Assembly: GCA_016181175.1 (NCBI GenBank)
Contig: JACOZV010000004.1
Location: 7,718 to 71,717, forward strand
Length of the DNA stretch: 64,000 bases
Reading direction: 5' to 3'
Source of the DNA: Candidatus Yanofskybacteria bacterium
GTDB lineage: Bacteria > Patescibacteriota > Minisyncoccia > 2-02-FULL-40-12 > IGHO2-01-FULL-4-A
Positions 391 through 59,371 of the stretch are shown here, piece by piece. Position 1 is the first letter of the stretch, and every line of letters begins with the position of its first letter. Position numbers and translations under genes: made by a program. Under the pieces are notes generated by a model. It had not been told where the DNA came from and searched no databases. It saw only the letters and a program-made list of their open reading frames with translations.

Positions 391-465
391 TGGAGCCAGC
401 GGTCGGAATCGGACCGACGCTCTTTCCCTTACCATGGGAGTGCTTTACCACTAAGCTACGCTGGC
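391..465 (-). tRNA. tRNA-Thr (anticodon GGT), CCA encoded
   Basis: Reverse complement GCCAGCGTAGCTTAGTGGTAAAGCACTCCCATGGTAAGGGAAAGAGCGTCGGTCCGATTCCGACCGCTGGCTCCA. Acceptor, D, anticodon and T stems all pair. Confidence 0.85.
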
Positions 466-469
466 ATAA

Positions 470-506
470 TACCATGGAGTTGCTCTTCCACTGAGCTACA
501 ACGGCC
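470..506 (-). pseudogene. Orphan tRNA-Thr(GGT)-like 5' half (acceptor strand through anticodon loop), no 3' half
   Basis: GGCCGTTGTAGCTCAGTGGAAGAGCAACTCCATGGTA matches 23/29 nt with the D-arm to anticodon-loop part of the adjacent tRNA-Thr. It stops at CCATGGTA, 4 nt before the intact gene. No complementary AACGGCC-bearing T arm or 3' strand follows. Confidence 0.5.
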
Positions 507-798
507 TCACACCTACTTAGCTTCAACAACACAATTCTTAATTCGCCTTTTAAGTTGCAGGTATGCGTTTCCTCTCAATTTTATACTATATTCTCTATGC
601 TTGGCATCTCCTTGCGAATAATAACTTTCATAGTATATCAGCCACCAAGGAATATTCAACTTTGTGGCTTTAACCAAACCAAAATTGTGTTGTTGGAATC
701 TTAACGTAAGATCGTGGGTATAGCCAAAGTATAATTGGCCATCTTTTTTACTTTTCAAAACATAAAAATAATACATAAAGCTAAGTAGGTGTGAGGCC
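503..798. repeat. Perfect 21-bp inverted repeat bracketing the GIY-YIG ORF
   Basis: ggcctcacacctacttagctt (503-523) is the exact reverse complement of aagctaagtaggtgtgaggcc (778-798). The heptamer aacggcc abuts both outer ends (500-506 and 799-805). Confidence 0.9.
513..776 (-). CDS. Small stand-alone GIY-YIG nuclease family protein (87 aa from the ATG)
   Basis: MYYFYVLKSKKDGQLYFGYTHDLTLRFQQHN... carries the GIY/YIG-type motifs and the length of the UPF0213-like family. The TTG-extended start at 800 lies inside the inverted repeat. Confidence 0.8.
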   Translation of the reverse strand: MYYFYVLKSKKDGQLYFGYTHDLTLRFQQHNFGLVKATKLNIPWWLIYYESYYSQGDAKHREYSIKLRGNAYLQLKRRIKNCVVEAK

Positions 799-839
799 AA
801 CGGCCTTTTTTATCAACATTTTTTAACTTTATTTTTATT

Positions 840-1054
840 CTGTGGGGGCGGTAGCGTTGAAAACCAACTGCTTGGTTTTCAACGGGAATTTTAGCTTTGC
901 CTTGTGCGAATAGCACGGCAAAGCGTTATAAAAATTCCCATGCACCGTATTCGCTAAAAGCGAACTTGATGCAAATCTGCTGCTTCGCAGCAAGTCCAGA
1001 AACATAATCGCCGTAGGTAGTTATGTTTCTGGACTCTATCTGTGGGGGCGGTAG
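840..1054. repeat. 15-bp direct repeat of the tRNA-Tyr 3' end, exactly 200 bp apart
   Basis: ctgtgggggcggtag occurs at 840-854 and at 1040-1054. The second copy is the discriminator, 3' acceptor strand and start of the T stem of the intact tRNA-Tyr. Confidence 0.85.
855..1039 (-). ncRNA. Candidate structured RNA (five consecutive hairpins) between tRNA-Tyr and its duplicated 3' end
   Basis: Hairpins read directly: 855-884 (13 bp), 884-939 (nested 9+8+4 bp), 950-964 (5 bp), 978-992 (6 bp), 994-1034 (14 bp). No ORF is present. The strand is assumed from the flanking tRNAs. Confidence 0.3.
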
Positions 1055-1126
1055 GATTTGCACCTACGTAGGCACAAGGCCAGCAGATTTACAGTCTGCC
1101 CTCGTTGACTGCTTGAGTACACCCCC
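1043..1126 (-). tRNA. tRNA-Tyr (anticodon GTA), long variable arm
   Basis: Reverse complement GGGGGTGTACTCAAGCAGTCAACGAGGGCAGACTGTAAATCTGC...GTAGGTGCAAATCCTACCGCCCCCA. Anticodon loop is CUGUAAA. Confidence 0.85.
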
Positions 1127-1142
1127 TATTTTGGCCAACCGA

Positions 1143-1217
1143 TGGAGCCGACCCCGAGATTCGAACTCGGAACCTACGCTTTACAAAAGCGTTGCTCTGC
1201 CGTTGAGCTAGATCGGC
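1143..1217 (-). tRNA. tRNA-Thr (anticodon TGT), CCA encoded
   Basis: Reverse complement GCCGATCTAGCTCAACGGCAGAGCAACGCTTTTGTAAAGCGTAGGTTCCGAGTTCGAATCTCGGGGTCGGCTCCA. Its 5' end overlaps the last codons of the upstream CDS by ~10 nt. Confidence 0.85.
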
Positions 1218-1843
1218 AACTTTTCCAATTTTTTTAAGAGTCGTGTGAGTTTGTTCCGAGTTGTTTCGTCCTCCGGATCAAGTTCTGCGGCTTTTTTAAA
1301 AGACTCAACTGCATCGTGCCACTCCTCCATTTTCATATATATATTGCCTAATTTTTTATAAAGCCCAGCGTCCTTTGGATTTGTTGCTATTTCAAGAATC
1401 AACTTATGTTCTTGCTCTTCTAAATCTACTCCCCTGCCACTGTCGCTACTAATCCTGACTTCTTGTTCGGCCTGGGCGGCCGCTTCGCTACTTATCACGC
1501 TCTCGTGATGCATCACTGATTTGCGAACCCTATTGATTAACCGATTGGTGACCGCGTCAAGTTTTAGCGAAAATAGTCTTAATTTCCTCAAAAATTTTTC
1601 AAATTCAGCAAGAAAATTAAGACGATATTGCCTTAAATCTACTTTCTGAATATAGGCAGTGGGCACCGGAAAAAATTCAGCCCAAAAACCAGACTGTTCC
1701 GGCACAACACTCTCAACCACTTCGGGGGTAAGTTTTTTAAGATAAACGAACTTTCGGCTTATAATCCAGCCGATAGAGACTATAGAGAAAATAAAAATAC
1801 CAAATGGAATGAAAAAAAACATGTTTAGAGTTGCAGTCGGCAA
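1208..1843 (-). CDS. Membrane-anchored protein with a C-terminal TPR-like repeat
   Basis: N-terminal hydrophobic helix (FFFIPFGIFIFSIVSIGWII). The C-terminus (AGLYKKLGNIYMKMEEWHDAVESFKKAAELDPED) looks like a TPR unit. Confidence 0.55.
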   Translation of the reverse strand: MPTATLNMFFFIPFGIFIFSIVSIGWIISRKFVYLKKLTPEVVESVVPEQSGFWAEFFPVPTAYIQKVDLRQYRLNFLAEFEKFLRKLRLFSLKLDAVTNRLINRVRKSVMHHESVISSEAAAQAEQEVRISSDSGRGVDLEEQEHKLILEIATNPKDAGLYKKLGNIYMKMEEWHDAVESFKKAAELDPEDETTRNKLTRLLKKLEKLPI

Positions 1844-3288: not shown

Positions 3289-6200
3289 TTATTTATAAAA
3301 ATTCCAGAAATTTCCAAAAATATCTAACGCTTTGTCTTTTAACCCCCCCCCCCCCGTAACTTGTATTTCCAAACTGGAATCGCTGAAATTACCGGCCAGA
3401 TCAAAAACTCTGGCAGTTATTTTATGCTTTCCCGACTCAAAAAACGGGACAAGCAACTCCAAAGCAACAGGAAAAAATATTCCATCATCAATCTTAAAAT
3501 AAACAACCGGCTGAACAATTTCCTCGAAACCCACACTGAATTTAAATCTCACAGTCTCGCCGATTTTCACCGACAAAGAACTCGCCTTTATTACTGGCGG
3601 TGCCGGCGGCGTTGAATCAATCATAATTTTGAATTGGGAAACCGGCCCGAGACGGCCATCGGTGTCTTCTGCCTGGAGACGAAAATAGTATATGCTGTCT
3701 TCATCAATGGAGATGTTAAGAAAATTGTCCGAAGTTGAAACGGCTTTGCCCGGTATAAAGTCCGGGGTTTGATTCAACGCATAGTGATAAACGCCGCCTT
3801 CAAGCAACGGCCAAGCCAGCTGAATATCTTTTTTATGATACCAGCGATTGCTGTTGGGATGGCTTGGTGAAAATATGGGTATTATTTCATTAATGCTCGC
3901 GTTGGTTAATCCTTGTCGGGTAATACTGTAAAAAGCGTCACTTGCCGCCCTAAGCACATCGGTCCCCAAGCCGTCATTGGCAAGAACTTGCGTCCCTTCG
4001 GCGAATTTAAGCGAAGCCCCGCCCACAGTTAACGGCTGCACTACAAGCTCGGCTACCGTACCGGACGGTTCGGAAAATCCGGGATTAGGAACGCCGCAAA
4101 CAATTGTTACCGTTCCCGCCGCATTATCAATATCTTTTTCCAAAAAAAGTCCGGGATCGCACAAGGAATTGGCCGTCAAAATATCAACTATTTCAAACAC
4201 GCTCGGGTCATATTTTATTACCGCGCTCACGACATTGATAATTTCTCCACCGGTAAGCACCTTTATGGCAATGTTTTTTTCAACAAATTGGTTAATGATA
4301 TCCGCTTCAGGTTCAAATTTAATCGTAGAATTATAGATAGAATACGGCGCTCTTTCTAATTTTATAGAAATGCGGTCCAGTTTGTTGTAACTGATAAAAT
4401 ACATCACGGAAAATAAAGTCAGGGTTATAATTAAAATAGTTGGAATCCGATGCCTATGATGGAAAACACTCAGGAAAAAAGATAAATATATGAAAATCGC
4501 AAGAAAAGCAAGCGCCATAAAACCGGCCAAAACAATGCTATAGAAATTGTGGCTGGTCGGAAAAAGAATAATCGTTCCGCCGGGGCTTCCCTCAATTCCC
4601 GGAAATACGATATTGCTGACAATGTAATATTCCTCGCTTATTTTAAGTTCTTTGGCAAATTTAGGAACTTGTTTGGCAATTAGGTCGGAACCAACCGAGA
4701 AAAAGCTATTCAGTATAAAAATAGTATCCTTATCCTTTAAGCTTGTGCTGATTAAACCCTCCTCTGGAGTATAAAAAATAACATGCGAACCATTCTTCAA
4801 ATACTTGTCCTGAAACCGTACGGCATAAGAATTGTTAAATAAGTTTCCCAGAACAATAGCGCCGATAACTTTGTCATCTTCTAAAATAAGGGAGTTGCTT
4901 ATTGCGGCCAGGGGATTTTTGACCCCACGGACGATTTCAGTAACCGTTTCACCTTTAGCCACCCGCCTTCCTTGGATAGTGGTTTGAAAAACATTATCTC
5001 CGCGTTGATCCGGCAAATGTGAACGAACAAGCACAAATCCGTCCTTGTCAGTTACGGCAATAAAACTAAGTTCCCTTTCTTTTGCTTCAGCTTGCACGAT
5101 GGAGAGAAGCTCCAGCGTATCGCCTGCCTTCAGGGCATCGTTAAGAACTCCTGAAGAGACAATCTCCTCTCTTTGGTCAGAAATGTATTTGAGTTCCTCG
5201 GAAAAAACAGTCTTTAGTTGAATAATTTGTTTATCAGTTGAATAAGAATACCACAAGCCCAAGAGCCAGTTAGAAAATAGCATAATGATTACAAACACCA
5301 GAATGCTTAGCAATATTTCAATCATCTCTTTTTTGTGTATCCAGTCGGTTTTGCTTTTTTTATTTAATTTCTTTTTTTTACGATATTTTTTAATTAAATA
5401 ACTCTTAACTTCATGCCCAGTAGCTAGAATCTCCTTTTTTGTCGCGACAAAAATGAGCGCAATAATCAAAATAGAGGAAACCAAAAGCCATTCATTTTTA
5501 ATAAAGTTAATGAAGCCGCCGAATATCTTTGTCAAAAAGTCAAAAATTAGTTCGGTAAAAGACCCGGATTTTACCCTAAATGATACTCGGTTAGAATCAA
5601 TAGAAATGGCACTCCTGTCATCAACCGCCTGCGCCGTCACCTCGTGGCGACCTCCTCGTTCCGGCTTAAACTCAACCTGCCAATATCCATTGGCATCGGC
5701 GTGCGTTTCCAGTATGTATTCCGGGTTGACCCTGATGGCAACCCGAACTTTTTGGTTGGGCTTGGCTTTTCCATTTATAGTAATGGTTTCGCCTATTTTA
5801 ACTTGCGGCTTTTCTATTTGATTTAAAATCACCGGCTCTATTGATTGAATCTCCATTTGATAGTCAGATTCTGAATAATTCCCTGCTTTATCAAAAGCTC
5901 TTATGATAATCTTGCGCACCCCTGGCAATTGCAAAGGCATTTTATATAATCCGGCCAACCCCGGTTCTATTTTTAACCAGTCACTCTCACCGATTTTCAT
6001 TTCATATCTATCAATACCAGATGTACCGTCTGAAGTATCAAAAGCGAGTCTGGGTTGCGGGTTGGTTAAGTCCGCCACATCCAATCTGGTTATTTTAAAA
6101 TCTGCGGGTTTTTGGGTATCAACGTTAAACTTAAACGAAGTTACGGGACCTAATCCCGCTGGTGTTTTCGCACGGGCGTTAAAATAAAATTCGCCCTCTC

Positions 6201-6984
6201 CTACATCATCCAGAACTTTTTCTGAAATCGGAGGATCATAGCTTATTATCGGCGGGGAATTGTTTCTTCGGCTCAAAACCAAAATGACCTCGCCGGTATC
6301 TACCGGCAAATCCCATTTGAAAATTGGGTTATTATTTGAATACCACTTTAACTGGTCTGGATGGGTAGACGATGTAATAATCAACTGCTCCGCTGAAACA
6401 GGAGCGGGAGTTGTGACTATTTTGGGCGTTGCTTGAGACGATGCCTGCGGCGATACCGGTGTTACCTTTGGTAATACCGATATTGCCCTTAAAACATAAG
6501 CTCCGCCCGCTAACGATGATAAAACATTCGTACCCTGCCCATCATTGGCTAAAACCGCGCCGGATGAAAAAGAAACTTGAGTAGTTGCCACCGCCTTTGC
6601 CTTGAAGTTTATAGTAAGAATATTGCCTGATGTTCCCGTATATCCAGGATTAAAAACAATGCCGCCGAAATTTATCGTTCCCAGCGCATTGGAAAAATCG
6701 GGTTCTTGCACCCAGAGACTGAAAATAGAACCAGTCCTCGTAAGAGACGTAACCGCGAGTTCAGCAGGATTAAATTTTAGTATGCCTACAGCGGCGTTAA
6801 TTGAAACACCGGCGCTATTAATCCTGATAGAAACACTAAAGTTGCTCCCATTATTATAAGTTCCCGAACCTGGAGATATAAAAAGCGTCGCGGCTCGCGC
6901 TAAAGAAAAGGGAAACAGAAACAAAAGCAAAGAAATTGCTGGAATTGCCCACTGCTTTTTAAATTTTATTTTTAACCCCTCCAA
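3289..6984 (-). CDS. Giant multi-pass surface protein with two cohesin-like modules and a central extracytoplasmic sensor-like domain
   Basis: It has a signal/TM N-terminus and two cohesin-like segments (ILKFNPAELAVTSL...VLANDGQGTNVL and IKYDPSVFEIVDIL...VLANDGLGTDVL). Hydrophobic helices flank a ~200-aa domain (Cache/PDC-like is only a guess). Each cohesin is followed by Ig/FN3-like beta-rich stretches. Confidence 0.6.
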   Translation of the reverse strand: MEGLKIKFKKQWAIPAISLLLFLFPFSLARAATLFISPGSGTYNNGSNFSVSIRINSAGVSINAAVGILKFNPAELAVTSLTRTGSIFSLWVQEPDFSNALGTINFGGIVFNPGYTGTSGNILTINFKAKAVATTQVSFSSGAVLANDGQGTNVLSSLAGGAYVLRAISVLPKVTPVSPQASSQATPKIVTTPAPVSAEQLIITSSTHPDQLKWYSNNNPIFKWDLPVDTGEVILVLSRRNNSPPIISYDPPISEKVLDDVGEGEFYFNARAKTPAGLGPVTSFKFNVDTQKPADFKITRLDVADLTNPQPRLAFDTSDGTSGIDRYEMKIGESDWLKIEPGLAGLYKMPLQLPGVRKIIIRAFDKAGNYSESDYQMEIQSIEPVILNQIEKPQVKIGETITINGKAKPNQKVRVAIRVNPEYILETHADANGYWQVEFKPERGGRHEVTAQAVDDRSAISIDSNRVSFRVKSGSFTELIFDFLTKIFGGFINFIKNEWLLVSSILIIALIFVATKKEILATGHEVKSYLIKKYRKKKKLNKKSKTDWIHKKEMIEILLSILVFVIIMLFSNWLLGLWYSYSTDKQIIQLKTVFSEELKYISDQREEIVSSGVLNDALKAGDTLELLSIVQAEAKERELSFIAVTDKDGFVLVRSHLPDQRGDNVFQTTIQGRRVAKGETVTEIVRGVKNPLAAISNSLILEDDKVIGAIVLGNLFNNSYAVRFQDKYLKNGSHVIFYTPEEGLISTSLKDKDTIFILNSFFSVGSDLIAKQVPKFAKELKISEEYYIVSNIVFPGIEGSPGGTIILFPTSHNFYSIVLAGFMALAFLAIFIYLSFFLSVFHHRHRIPTILIITLTLFSVMYFISYNKLDRISIKLERAPYSIYNSTIKFEPEADIINQFVEKNIAIKVLTGGEIINVVSAVIKYDPSVFEIVDILTANSLCDPGLFLEKDIDNAAGTVTIVCGVPNPGFSEPSGTVAELVVQPLTVGGASLKFAEGTQVLANDGLGTDVLRAASDAFYSITRQGLTNASINEIIPIFSPSHPNSNRWYHKKDIQLAWPLLEGGVYHYALNQTPDFIPGKAVSTSDNFLNISIDEDSIYYFRLQAEDTDGRLGPVSQFKIMIDSTPPAPPVIKASSLSVKIGETVRFKFSVGFEEIVQPVVYFKIDDGIFFPVALELLVPFFESGKHKITARVFDLAGNFSDSSLEIQVTGGGGLKDKALDIFGNFWNFYK

Positions 6985-7003
6985 AGTTAAAATTGATAGC
7001 CTA

Positions 7004-7903
7004 CTATCTGAATCTTTTGTTATTTTTTATTAATTTTTTTGCTCTTCGTATTAACCGTGTTAAAAATGAAAAAAATAAAATAACCAAAAAAGTCGGCGTG
7101 CCAATTGCCAAATATGCAAATCCGTGGGGGACGAATTTCTCAATTCTTGCAAGCCCTACTTTATCCACGGCTTTTATCTCTATTATACTAAACGGATACA
7201 AATGCCGCAAAACATAAGGACTGTCTGCTTCACGCCACTGACCAAACAAACCAAGAGTTTTTTCCTTAACTTCATAGTGGCTAATGCCACTTCCCTTGTC
7301 TTGGGCTGAAAAAACGGCAACTCTGGCGCCATCAAATAAATTCTCGTTTTTGGTTATGAGTATCTCAAACTTTTCGGGCGCATAAAAATCCACAATTCGT
7401 GTTTTGATTATCTCTTGGTCGCCAGCTTCAAGAATATTAACAGCCGCTATCCCCGTGGTAACCGGCGCCTCCTGGCCTCCATCTTGGTGCAAATAAACCT
7501 TAAAATCTTCGAAAAATATCCGAGCTTCTCCTGTTTTCTTGGCCAAAAATGATAAATCAATAATTTTATCTTCCTTATCAGTGGTTGGTCCCTCTCCTCC
7601 GGGTATAATACCTGAAAATTTAATTGTATCTTTTCCGATTAAGGCTGGCCTATCAACCCATAAATTTATCAGCGAATTGGCATCAGAAAAATCTTTATAT
7701 TCAAGCAGGTTTGGGTCAAATTTGATTTTACTTTCTATGGCATTTATAAATTCTTCCGGATTTATCAGAACCTTAACTGAAAAAATCTGACCGGCCTCAA
7801 TTTCGCCCGGGATAGAAAAATATAATTTGGCCGCCGAGGCAAAATTAGAGAATAGTAAGTAGAAAGTAGAAAGTAGTAAAAAAATTAAATATTTTTTAAA
7901 CAT
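7004..7903 (-). CDS. Cohesin-domain protein with signal peptide and C-terminal membrane anchor
   Basis: The N-terminal signal is followed by KLYFSIPGEIEAGQIFSVKVLINPEEFINAIESKIKFDPNLLEY, a cohesin-like pattern. The C-terminus has the hydrophobic helix YLAIGTPTFLVILFFSFL and a basic tail. Confidence 0.6.
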   Translation of the reverse strand: MFKKYLIFLLLSTFYLLFSNFASAAKLYFSIPGEIEAGQIFSVKVLINPEEFINAIESKIKFDPNLLEYKDFSDANSLINLWVDRPALIGKDTIKFSGIIPGGEGPTTDKEDKIIDLSFLAKKTGEARIFFEDFKVYLHQDGGQEAPVTTGIAAVNILEAGDQEIIKTRIVDFYAPEKFEILITKNENLFDGARVAVFSAQDKGSGISHYEVKEKTLGLFGQWREADSPYVLRHLYPFSIIEIKAVDKVGLARIEKFVPHGFAYLAIGTPTFLVILFFSFLTRLIRRAKKLIKNNKRFR

Positions 7904-59098: not shown

Positions 59099-59371
59099 AG
59101 TTTTGTGAGCGGCGAGTTTTGAAACACAAAACCCACCACTGGGAGGGCTTGCGCCCCTATGGAAGTTTCCCTCCATAACGTTAGGCACGCCCCAAATGAT
59201 GGGTTTTCTATGCCTAACGATTTGCGACCATGCCGCCAGCCGAAGCCGATGGTTTAGATCATTTGATATCCAATTGTGTTTTTAAGTATATCAGAAAAAC
59301 ATGAGATCCTGCAACGGATGAAAAATACTGCTGGTCAAATGTGGCAAGGTCTGCTAAAATGAGTTTTAAGA

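Follow-up and report, generated by a model that had tools for sequence, protein, structure and literature searches.

A 64,000-nucleotide (nt) stretch of the genome of a Candidatus Yanofskybacteria bacterium (assembly GCA_016181175.1, contig JACOZV010000004.1, positions 7,718 to 71,717; hereafter the window, numbered from its first letter) contains, directly 3′ of a tRNA-Tyr gene (1043–1126) and in the same orientation, a hairpin-rich unit that extends from 1041 to 839 on the minus strand. On balance, we favor the view that this is a single representative of a non-coding repeat unit of RtT/tyrT design that is conserved in the lineage, linked to tRNA-Tyr, co-transcribed, and subject to repeat-driven gain and loss. 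Judged by sequence comparison, the unit is of the RtT/tyrT kind, new and unrelated in sequence to RtT of Escherichia coli. Its anatomy is best understood as a partial copy of the 3′ region of tRNA-Tyr, with the T-loop split by a small hairpin module able to move or be copied. To our knowledge, RtT has remained an orphan of E. coli since 1991, and we know of no mode of action for it.

A duplicated tRNA-Tyr 3′ end enclosing five hairpins

The unit is delimited by an exact 16-nt repeat, TCTGTGGGGGCGGTAG, found at 839–854 and 1039–1054 with a start-to-start spacing of 200 nt (two matches in the window vs. 0.02 expected from shuffles). On the minus strand the repeat reads CTACCGCCCCCA followed by CAGA, corresponding to the final 12 nt of tRNA-Tyr and then 4 nt of trailer. 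The distal copy lacks CCA because the tRNA-Tyr gene itself encodes none. Between the copies lie 184 nt (855–1038) that fold as five consecutive hairpins, with a minimum free energy of −89 kcal/mol on the tRNA-sense strand compared to −48 ± 4 kcal/mol for shuffles (z = −9.3; antisense strand, z = −9.9). The longest stem has 15 base pairs (bp), formed by 993–1007 and 1021–1035. A reading of the locus from its sequence alone had correctly described the exact repeat, its spacing, the 12 tRNA nucleotides and the five strong hairpins, while slightly miscounting the trailer (3 nt rather than 4), the interior (185 nt rather than 184) and the longest stem (14 bp rather than 15). That reading had also stated that the spacer contains no open reading frame (ORF), which is literally wrong: a 56-codon ATG ORF runs from 1005 to 835 on the tRNA-sense strand, inside the unit. 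As this ORF is broken by stop codons in all related units, the unit is non-coding.

Three covariance models were used: R1, comprising hairpins 2–5 and the distal copy of the type A units defined below; R2, tested for type B; and R3, for an 84-nt module of two hairpins. The features of the locus are as follows.

1043–1126, minus strand: intact tRNA-Tyr (GTA) with no encoded CCA (ARAGORN, 1042–1126; Rfam tRNA model, 1043–1126, 50.9 bits), discriminator A at 1043
1039–1054, minus strand: proximal repeat copy, comprising the T-stem 3′ strand (from CTAC), the acceptor 3′ strand, discriminator A (1043) and trailer CAGA (1042–1039)
993–1035, minus strand: hairpin 1, with a 15-bp stem and 13-nt loop, beginning 7 nt past the tRNA discriminator
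978–992, minus strand: hairpin 2 (UGCUGC-GAA-GCAGCA), followed by an invariant single-stranded GAUU; helix 1 of the covariation analysis
941–973, minus strand: hairpin 3, whose 3′ strand GGUGCA appears to copy the tRNA-Tyr T-arm 5′ half and whose 5′ strand (GAUU)UGCAUC is the T-loop complement
856–939, minus strand: two-hairpin module, hairpin 4 (884–939) plus hairpin 5 (856–883), between the copied T-arm halves; model R3, 83.7 bits
839–854, minus strand: distal repeat copy, CUACCGCCCCCA plus CAGA, abutting hairpin 5, with the discriminator-equivalent A at 843
839–993, minus strand: type A unit core, hairpins 2–5 plus the distal copy; model R1, 153 bits, E = 7e-44

The unit is unique within the window: a BLAST search against all 64 kb found no dispersed copies, and R3 and R1 found no second copy of the module or the unit there. 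The Rfam scan that had been proposed for this region, run at the gathering threshold and at E ≤ 10, returned tRNAs only, plus chance miRNA-like hairpin matches, and assigned the unit to no known family. Other identities were also considered. Neither ARAGORN nor Rfam detects a tmRNA in the window, and the Intron_gpI model is silent there, in contrast to a positive control in a relative (L004, 54.6 bits). The distal copy is not an inverted tRNA 5′ end, as it has the G67-type CGCCCCC, the discriminator and the trailer rather than the complement of the 5′ strand (GGGGGTG).

Recurrence in relatives

For comparison, 80 syntenic loci (designated by L numbers) were collected via EF-Ts, and the final 12–14 nt of each tRNA were looked for around its gene. 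A downstream copy of the 3′ end was found at 10 of 40 tRNA-Tyr genes, 26–340 nt away (43–340 nt start to start), and an upstream copy at 0 of 40; among Thr and Trp genes called by ARAGORN, 2 of 104 had a copy. Inverted copies of at least 10 nt were present downstream of 7 of the 40 tRNA-Tyr genes and upstream of none. The 3′ ends of tRNA-Tyr vary by lineage (including CCGCCCCC, CCGGCCC, CCCGCCGC, and GCTCTGCC), and the downstream copy usually matches the tRNA-Tyr of its own lineage, over five distinct acceptor sequences.

The sequences between tRNA and copy are of at least three types, mutually unlinked by BLAST. Type A is found in the window, L004, L018, L094, L105, and as two tandem units in L010 (identified with R1), in all cases after tRNA-Tyr. 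Type B occupies the same site in L003, L005, L011, L013, L016, L018, L032, and L109, while type C is found in L039 and L053. Arrays therefore occur, with A followed by B in L018 and A followed by A in L010. R1 scored 130–160 bits on four known type A units and 53.6 and 31.7 bits on the tandem units of L010, which sit after a very different tRNA-Tyr. Exact distal copies are found in the window (16 nt) and in L010, where the first unit has 13 nt that match the tRNA of L010 itself. A metagenome scan for the type A pattern gave 12 matches, only one of which, L094, was real.

The locus varies among relatives, as had been anticipated, in that the unit may be present or absent and may occur once or twice. 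Judged by identity of the TPR protein, the closest relatives are L098 (89%) and the species represented by L099–L104 (77%), and these lack the unit, as seen at L098, L100, L103, and L104. Six samples of the L099–L104 species show several locus configurations, and in several relatives only 3–31 nt separate tRNA-Tyr from the next tRNA. In a tree of EF-Ts and S2, types A and B are each present in both subclades. Moreover, the flank that follows the distal copy in the window (GAATAAAAATAAAG...) is homologous to the flank of the distal copy in L003, despite the units being of different types (A vs. B). The simplest reading of these sequences would be an ancestral array at the locus, from which units have been lost, and perhaps gained, via the direct repeats.

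Unit cores are also found beside other tRNAs. A B-like core follows tRNA-Thr(GGT) in L004 and tRNA-Trp in L023, and a C core follows tRNA-Thr(TGT) in L053; in each case the inverted segment, the distal copy, or both match the new neighbor tRNA. In L109, a tRNA-Thr(TGT)-tRNA-Tyr pair is tandemly duplicated (4298–4847; possibly an assembly artifact), and between the two pairs lie a type B unit and an exact 16-nt copy of the tRNA-Tyr end. In some relatives a conserved ORF of ~55 codons (...KKEA..RL.QVEFFK...) takes the place of the hairpin unit in the gap between tRNA-Tyr and tRNA-Thr(GGT) (L098, 5290–5480; L023, 5480–5650, minus strand; L109, 4850–5040).

Structure conservation and strand

The hairpins are conserved through compensatory change, the outcome of a covariation check that the sequence-only reading had called for. 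In an alignment of six type A units, itself fitted to the covariance model, 96.6% of cells are paired and 21 of the 42 pairs have changed on both sides. None of 500 shuffles reached these pair counts, and sliding the structure by 1–3 columns as a control left 34–48% of cells paired, with 2–3 both-side-changed pairs. RNAalifold, applied to an independent MAFFT alignment of four type A units, found 13 of 42 pairs to be compensatory. The inner pairs of hairpin 3 (helices 2 and 3) covary in 5 of 5 cases. A strong hairpin is present at the hairpin 1 site in every related unit, with unconserved sequence; compared with L004, hairpin 1 of the window shows compensatory differences. For type B, RNAalifold found 12 of 30 pairs to be compensatory and predicted, unprompted, a closing helix of UAGGAUU with AAUCCUA, which carries a compensatory C–G pair in L013, where the tRNA has CCUGCC. 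No such partner strand was found for the distal copy in the window unit: its best duplex there has an energy of −8.4 kcal/mol, weaker than in 200 of 200 shuffles. For the GC-rich type B units this duplex-energy test is undiscriminating, as shuffles pair equally well.

G–U pairs outnumber A–C combinations on the tRNA-sense strand (8:1 in type A and 10:1 in type B), and the consensus fold is more favorable on that strand by 4–9 kcal/mol (5–9 kcal/mol for type A). These comparisons suggest that it is the tRNA-sense strand that folds. This points to an RNA made with the tRNAs, or possibly to single-stranded DNA of that strand. An earlier suggestion that the unit is a co-transcribed non-coding RNA thus gains indirect support from the compensatory changes and the sense-strand bias in G–U pairs and energy. 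Of the conservation that it had looked for in relatives, the hairpins are there, while the closest relatives lack the unit.

A putative split T-arm copy and a two-hairpin module

The segment immediately before hairpin 4, which forms the 3′ strand of hairpin 3, is TAGGTGCA in L004, GGTGCA in the window and GGGTTCGA in L010; it tracks the type of T-loop, that of L010 being the canonical TTCGAAT. In the window, 6 nt (GGUGCA) of the T-arm copy precede the module, and the distal copy after hairpin 5 supplies the T-arm 3′ half and the acceptor strand. With the T-arm 5′ half before hairpin 4 and the 3′ half after hairpin 5, these two hairpins read best, in terms of sequence, as occupying the T-loop position of a tRNA-Tyr 3′ copy.

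R3 detects the 84-nt module, in inverted orientation, at four other loci (L103, L099, L002, and L109). There it replaces the D-loop of truncated tRNA-Thr 5′ halves, of tRNA-Thr(GGT) in L103, L099, and L109 and of tRNA-Thr(TGT) in L002 and L109, each of them directly upstream of an intact tRNA with the same anticodon. On the strand where it is inverted, the module is preceded by (G)TAG(C). The two module copies of L109 are 97% identical, compared to 78–81% for same-position copies across genomes, which suggests recent copying or homogenization within the L109 genome. In number of copies, there is one unit in the 64-kb window, and the module occurs twice in L109. The module-bearing remnants lie at 4147–4280 and 5058–5191 in L109, 2830–2960 in L002, and 1248–1385 in L103. 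In L002, an HNH ORF stands between the tRNA-Thr remnant and the intact gene.

Two further observations concern tRNA-Tyr itself. U55 (pseudouridine 55) is near-universal in tRNA T-loops. The tRNA-Tyr T-loop of the window is UGCAAAU, with G at position 55, as it is in L002, L003, L005, L012, L013, L016, L018, L023, L032, and L094; more distant relatives have the usual UUCGAAU. Of the 13 nt of CAGCAGAUUUGCA (970–982, in the unit), 12 are complementary to the 3′ side of the anticodon arm of tRNA-Tyr (1081–1093). The motif is invariant across type A units, even where the anticodon stem of the tRNA differs (L094). Pairing between the two is doubtful, as there is no covariation with the anticodon stems of L094 or L010, and the complementarity is taken as ancestral or coincidental.

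Proposed mechanism and competing explanations

In the tRNA-sense direction, the anatomy would be that of a hairpin following the tRNA, two further hairpins of which the last carries the T-arm 5′ half, the 84-nt module, and then the rest of the tRNA end with its trailer. At the DNA level, comparison of the loci suggests that the 3′ end of the tRNA forms, together with the copy downstream of it, a pair of short direct repeats, between which slippage or recombination would add units, delete units, and keep the copy tRNA-like. Such repeat-mediated gain and loss could produce the observed arrays (A+B, A+A), single units (A or B only), and empty sites. At the RNA level, the unit lies within a Thr-Tyr-Thr-L33-Trp operon with no terminator ahead of it, and would therefore be transcribed with the tRNAs; we regard the unit as probably co-transcribed on this arrangement. 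Cutting by RNase Z at the tRNA-Tyr 3′ end would free the 5′ end of the unit, and selection on the sense strand would keep the five hairpins. As with RtT, the RNA could either serve the cell or be a selfish passenger that the host tolerates.

Several points weigh against this account. The closest relatives lack the unit, which makes it dispensable. Decayed distal copies are seen in L004, L018a, L094, and the second unit of L010, and copies of 13–20 nt are short for homogenization driven by recombination. The resemblance of hairpin 3 to a T-arm extends over only 6–8 nt. The pair counts come from an alignment fitted to its own model, and compensatory changes and G–T tolerance are equally expected for a hairpin element acting as single-stranded DNA or for quasi-palindrome correction. 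Furthermore, the relocated B and C cores, with ends that match the local tRNA, suggest that vertical descent is insufficient and that some process re-creates tRNA-matched ends at new sites; such a mechanism of relocation falls outside the model described above.

The hairpins could instead belong to a purposeful regulatory RNA of ~200 nt, excised by RNase Z or RNase P through mimicry of an acceptor/T-arm minihelix, as proposed for RttR of E. coli. The conservation of structure on the sense strand would be expected of such an RNA, as would the type B closing helix, which was predicted independently and has one compensatory change in L013. The inverted segment matches the neighbor tRNA also when the unit follows Thr or Trp, and RttR spans the interval from 8 nt past tyrV to the CCA of the copy. 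In the window, however, the distal copy lacks a partner strand, its best duplex falling below all 200 shuffles; in at least three of the six other type A units the copy has decayed; and the closest relatives do without the unit altogether. We consider this explanation unlikely. An earlier proposal that the window unit is released via its acceptor-like end is likewise unsupported, given the missing partner strand and the degenerate copies in other type A units; a closing helix of that kind does occur in the type B units of relatives. Ranked below it, and doubtful in our view, is a non-autonomous mobile DNA element that targets tRNA genes, with the unit or module moved in trans by an enzyme acting on single-stranded hairpins or by a homing-type nuclease of the kinds common in the cluster, and with the 16-nt repeat as target duplication. 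The module occurs in the D-loops of two different tRNA-Thr gene remnants as well as in the T-loop of the tRNA-Tyr copy, and its near-identity within L109 contrasts with its divergence between genomes. B and C cores follow Tyr, Thr(GGT), Trp, and Thr(TGT) with ends that match the local tRNA, presence and absence differ between close relatives and even between samples of one species, and the cluster is dense with group I introns and with ORFs of the GIY-YIG, HNH, and PD-(D/E)XK-like kinds. Against such an element stand the lack of any further copy of unit or module in the 64-kb window, the lack of terminal inverted repeats on the unit, and a copy length of 13–24 nt that is not that of a fixed target duplication. 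The presence of types A and B at one site in each of the two subclades is consistent with vertical descent and loss. Moreover, no transposase was identified, no search having been aimed at Y1 transposases, and we know of no associated Y1 transposase here.

It had also been suggested that the unit marks an element that used the tRNA 3′ end as its attachment (att) site. Such an element would be a phage, an island or a deletion derivative of one, inserted by an integrase, with the 16-nt copies as attL and attR. The direct repeats do run from the T-loop/T-stem to just past the discriminator, the classic position of tRNA attachment sites, and presence varies between relatives. Nonetheless, there is no integrase or conserved ORF between or beside the copies, whose neighbors are the GIY-YIG ORF, tRNAs, and L33, and 184 nt are far too short for an integrase gene, the enzyme having to act in trans. 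The interior is kept as hairpins across deep divergence, and just before the module there appears to be a copy of the other T-arm half, not expected from an att duplication. Neither phages nor plasmids gave a BLAST match to the unit, and scans of viral contigs for the unit pattern and for the tRNA-Tyr tail found none, or chance matches in unrelated tRNAs and coding sequence. We therefore regard integrase-mediated insertion as very improbable, and the repeat as no att site in the ordinary sense.

A tRNA-Tyr-linked repeat unit, gained and lost through its direct repeats, remains our preferred explanation. The comparative set, with its covarying hairpins, lineage-tracking distal copies, and tRNA-loop module, offers testable handles on the production and processing of the RNA, the copying of tRNA ends, and the movement of the module.

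The tRNA cluster around the unit

The EF-Ts of the window has 88% and 83% identity to those of two Yanofskybacteria metagenome-assembled genomes, and the TPR protein is 100% identical to a Yanofskybacteria protein in NCBI; searches for exact matches to the TPR, GIY-YIG, and L33 proteins of the window gave one short contig or none. The minus-strand gene order is rpsB, tsf, the TPR protein, tRNA-Thr(TGT) (1143–1217), tRNA-Tyr (1043–1126), the unit, a GIY-YIG ORF (513–800), a 5′-half fragment of tRNA-Thr(GGT), an intact tRNA-Thr(GGT) (391–465), rpmG, and tRNA-Trp. The order Thr-Tyr-Thr-L33-Trp is kept in dozens of relatives, with gaps between tRNAs of 3 nt to several hundred.

The GIY-YIG ORF (95 amino acids, minus strand) lies in a cassette (503–805) located 40 nt downstream of the unit. 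The cassette has perfect terminal inverted repeats of 20–21 nt (503–523 and 778–798), is flanked by a duplicated CGTTG, and interrupts an old tRNA-Thr(GGT) gene after nt 7 (GCCGTTG, cassette, CGTTGTAGCTCAG...); these sequence features suggest that a minimal GIY-YIG gene was inserted in the manner of a transposon. At 466–509 on the minus strand is the 5′ half of tRNA-Thr(GGT), ending in the anticodon loop (…CUCCAUGGUAU); it has 97% identity to tRNA-Thr(GGT) genes that are functional in other Yanofskybacteria. This half is followed by TAT and then by a different, intact tRNA-Thr(GGT) (391–465) that is 75% identical. The junction CCATGGTAT-TAT-GCC is found also in L103 and L099, and the break is offset by 1 nt from the 36/37 site used by group I introns.

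Selfish-element ORFs are found in the clusters of other relatives as well: GIY-YIG in L010; HNH in L002, L098, and L102; and PD-(D/E)XK-like in L004 and L094. In L004, tRNA-Tyr (6961–7246) and tRNA-Thr(GGT) (7478–7728) are both interrupted in the anticodon loop, and both were missed by ARAGORN. The interruption of tRNA-Tyr matches the Rfam group I intron model (54.6 bits), while that of tRNA-Thr(GGT) is taken as an intron by eye only. The PD-(D/E)XK-like ORF of L004 (6196–6952) lies between tRNA-Thr(TGT) and tRNA-Tyr. Group I introns of Patescibacteria tRNAs occupy the 35/36 and 36/37 sites (PMC13011429), and intron positions in these relatives fit 35/36 (Tyr) and 36/37 (Thr-GGT). The Thr-Tyr-Thr-Trp cluster may be viewed as a hot spot where single-copy tRNA genes are broken and rebuilt time and again by introns, nuclease cassettes, and hairpin modules. 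A double-strand break in a tRNA gene, if imperfectly repaired from a related allele, could conceivably leave a partial tRNA duplicate. Elsewhere in the window, a full-length LOOT RNA motif (RF03000) is found at 59144–59260 on the minus strand (71.1 bits vs. a gathering threshold of 46.4).

Relation to known systems

Several known systems resemble the unit in part. Homing-endonuclease cassettes such as phage T4 SegB (PMC2330249) and group I introns (PMC13011429) share its neighborhood and the occurrence of tRNA fragments beside intact tRNA genes. The unit itself, however, encodes nothing and is no group I intron; nuclease cutting could conceivably have been the origin of the duplication. Miniature inverted-repeat transposable elements and insertion sequences are recognized by traits that the unit does not show, as it has no terminal inverted repeats and the length of the copy varies from 13 to 24 nt between loci. 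Direct repeats of the attL/attR kind share with it a short exact duplicate, from T-stem to 3′ end, downstream of an intact tRNA gene, and variation between relatives, but the 184-nt interior is without a recombinase and has conserved RNA-like hairpins, and the other T-arm half seems to be copied as well. Repetitive extragenic palindromes and the bacterial interspersed mosaic elements (BIMEs) built with them are likewise small hairpin units in the 3′ flanks of genes, with strand-asymmetric pairing compatible with single-strand action, and the module too occurs at several sites. In contrast to them, the module is low-copy, is absent elsewhere in the 64-kb window, and is seen in tRNA loops only. 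One study described RtT as similar to BIME members (PMC2965389).

The closest likeness is to RtT, and the analogy to the E. coli tyrT locus drawn by the sequence-only reading proved apt: the shared design would be that of a tRNA-Tyr 3′ copy, split in the T-loop, that ends in the tRNA 3′ terminus. In E. coli tyrT-tyrV, the Rfam RtT model (RF00391) detects four units (133–137 bits). Aligned to tyrV, the E. coli unit reads CTTCGA(CC)AAGGTTCG, a 59-nt insert, and AATCCTTCCCCCACCACCA, equivalent to a partial tRNA-Tyr copy split in the T-loop. The consensus closing helix of RtT pairs GGGGAAGGAU with AUCCUUCCCC, such that an inverted copy of the T-stem/acceptor 3′ segment pairs with the distal direct copy of the tRNA terminus. 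The small RNA annotated as RttR extends from 8 nt past tyrV to the CCA that closes the tRNA-end copy; besides the annotation, its processing is covered by secondary citations (PMC3318445; PMC2965389; bioRxiv 10.1101/2024.07.17.603846). Like RtT, the window unit is located directly downstream of tRNA-Tyr on the same strand, is 150–200 nt long, hairpin-rich, and non-coding in effect, and ends in a copy of the tRNA-Tyr 3′ terminus. The partial tRNA-Tyr copy split in the T-loop is clear in E. coli and amounts to 6 nt before the module in the window. Tandem arrangement is possible in RtT as in the units of relatives, and the closing helix between inverted and distal copies is shared by RtT and the type B units, while the type A unit of the window is without it. 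E. coli has 3–4 units where the window has one, the copy here lacks CCA, and the host belongs to the Patescibacteria group rather than to the enterobacteria. The likeness does not extend to sequence: at E ≤ 10 the RtT model (gathering threshold, 45 bits) found no match in window positions 440–1240 or in six relatives, and R2 found none in E. coli, homology between type B and RtT thus being undetectable in either direction.

It is possible, if speculative, that both E. coli RtT and the units described here arose through a single unrecognized process, in which non-coding hairpin modules would invade the D- or T-loops of tRNAs, coupled to partial tRNA duplication, with the host keeping an intact tRNA. 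The disrupted copy would then survive as a structured co-transcribed RNA whose ends track the neighbor tRNA, the product of a mobile or duplicative system that is directed at tRNAs, lacks a protein of its own, and operates in phyla as far apart as Patescibacteria and Proteobacteria. In the comparison made here, an RtT-like architecture, mostly at tRNA-Tyr, recurs in a very distant lineage of reduced genomes, in at least three sequence-unrelated unit types, which suggests that a general mechanism or function, and not chance in the enterobacteria, lies behind the shared design.

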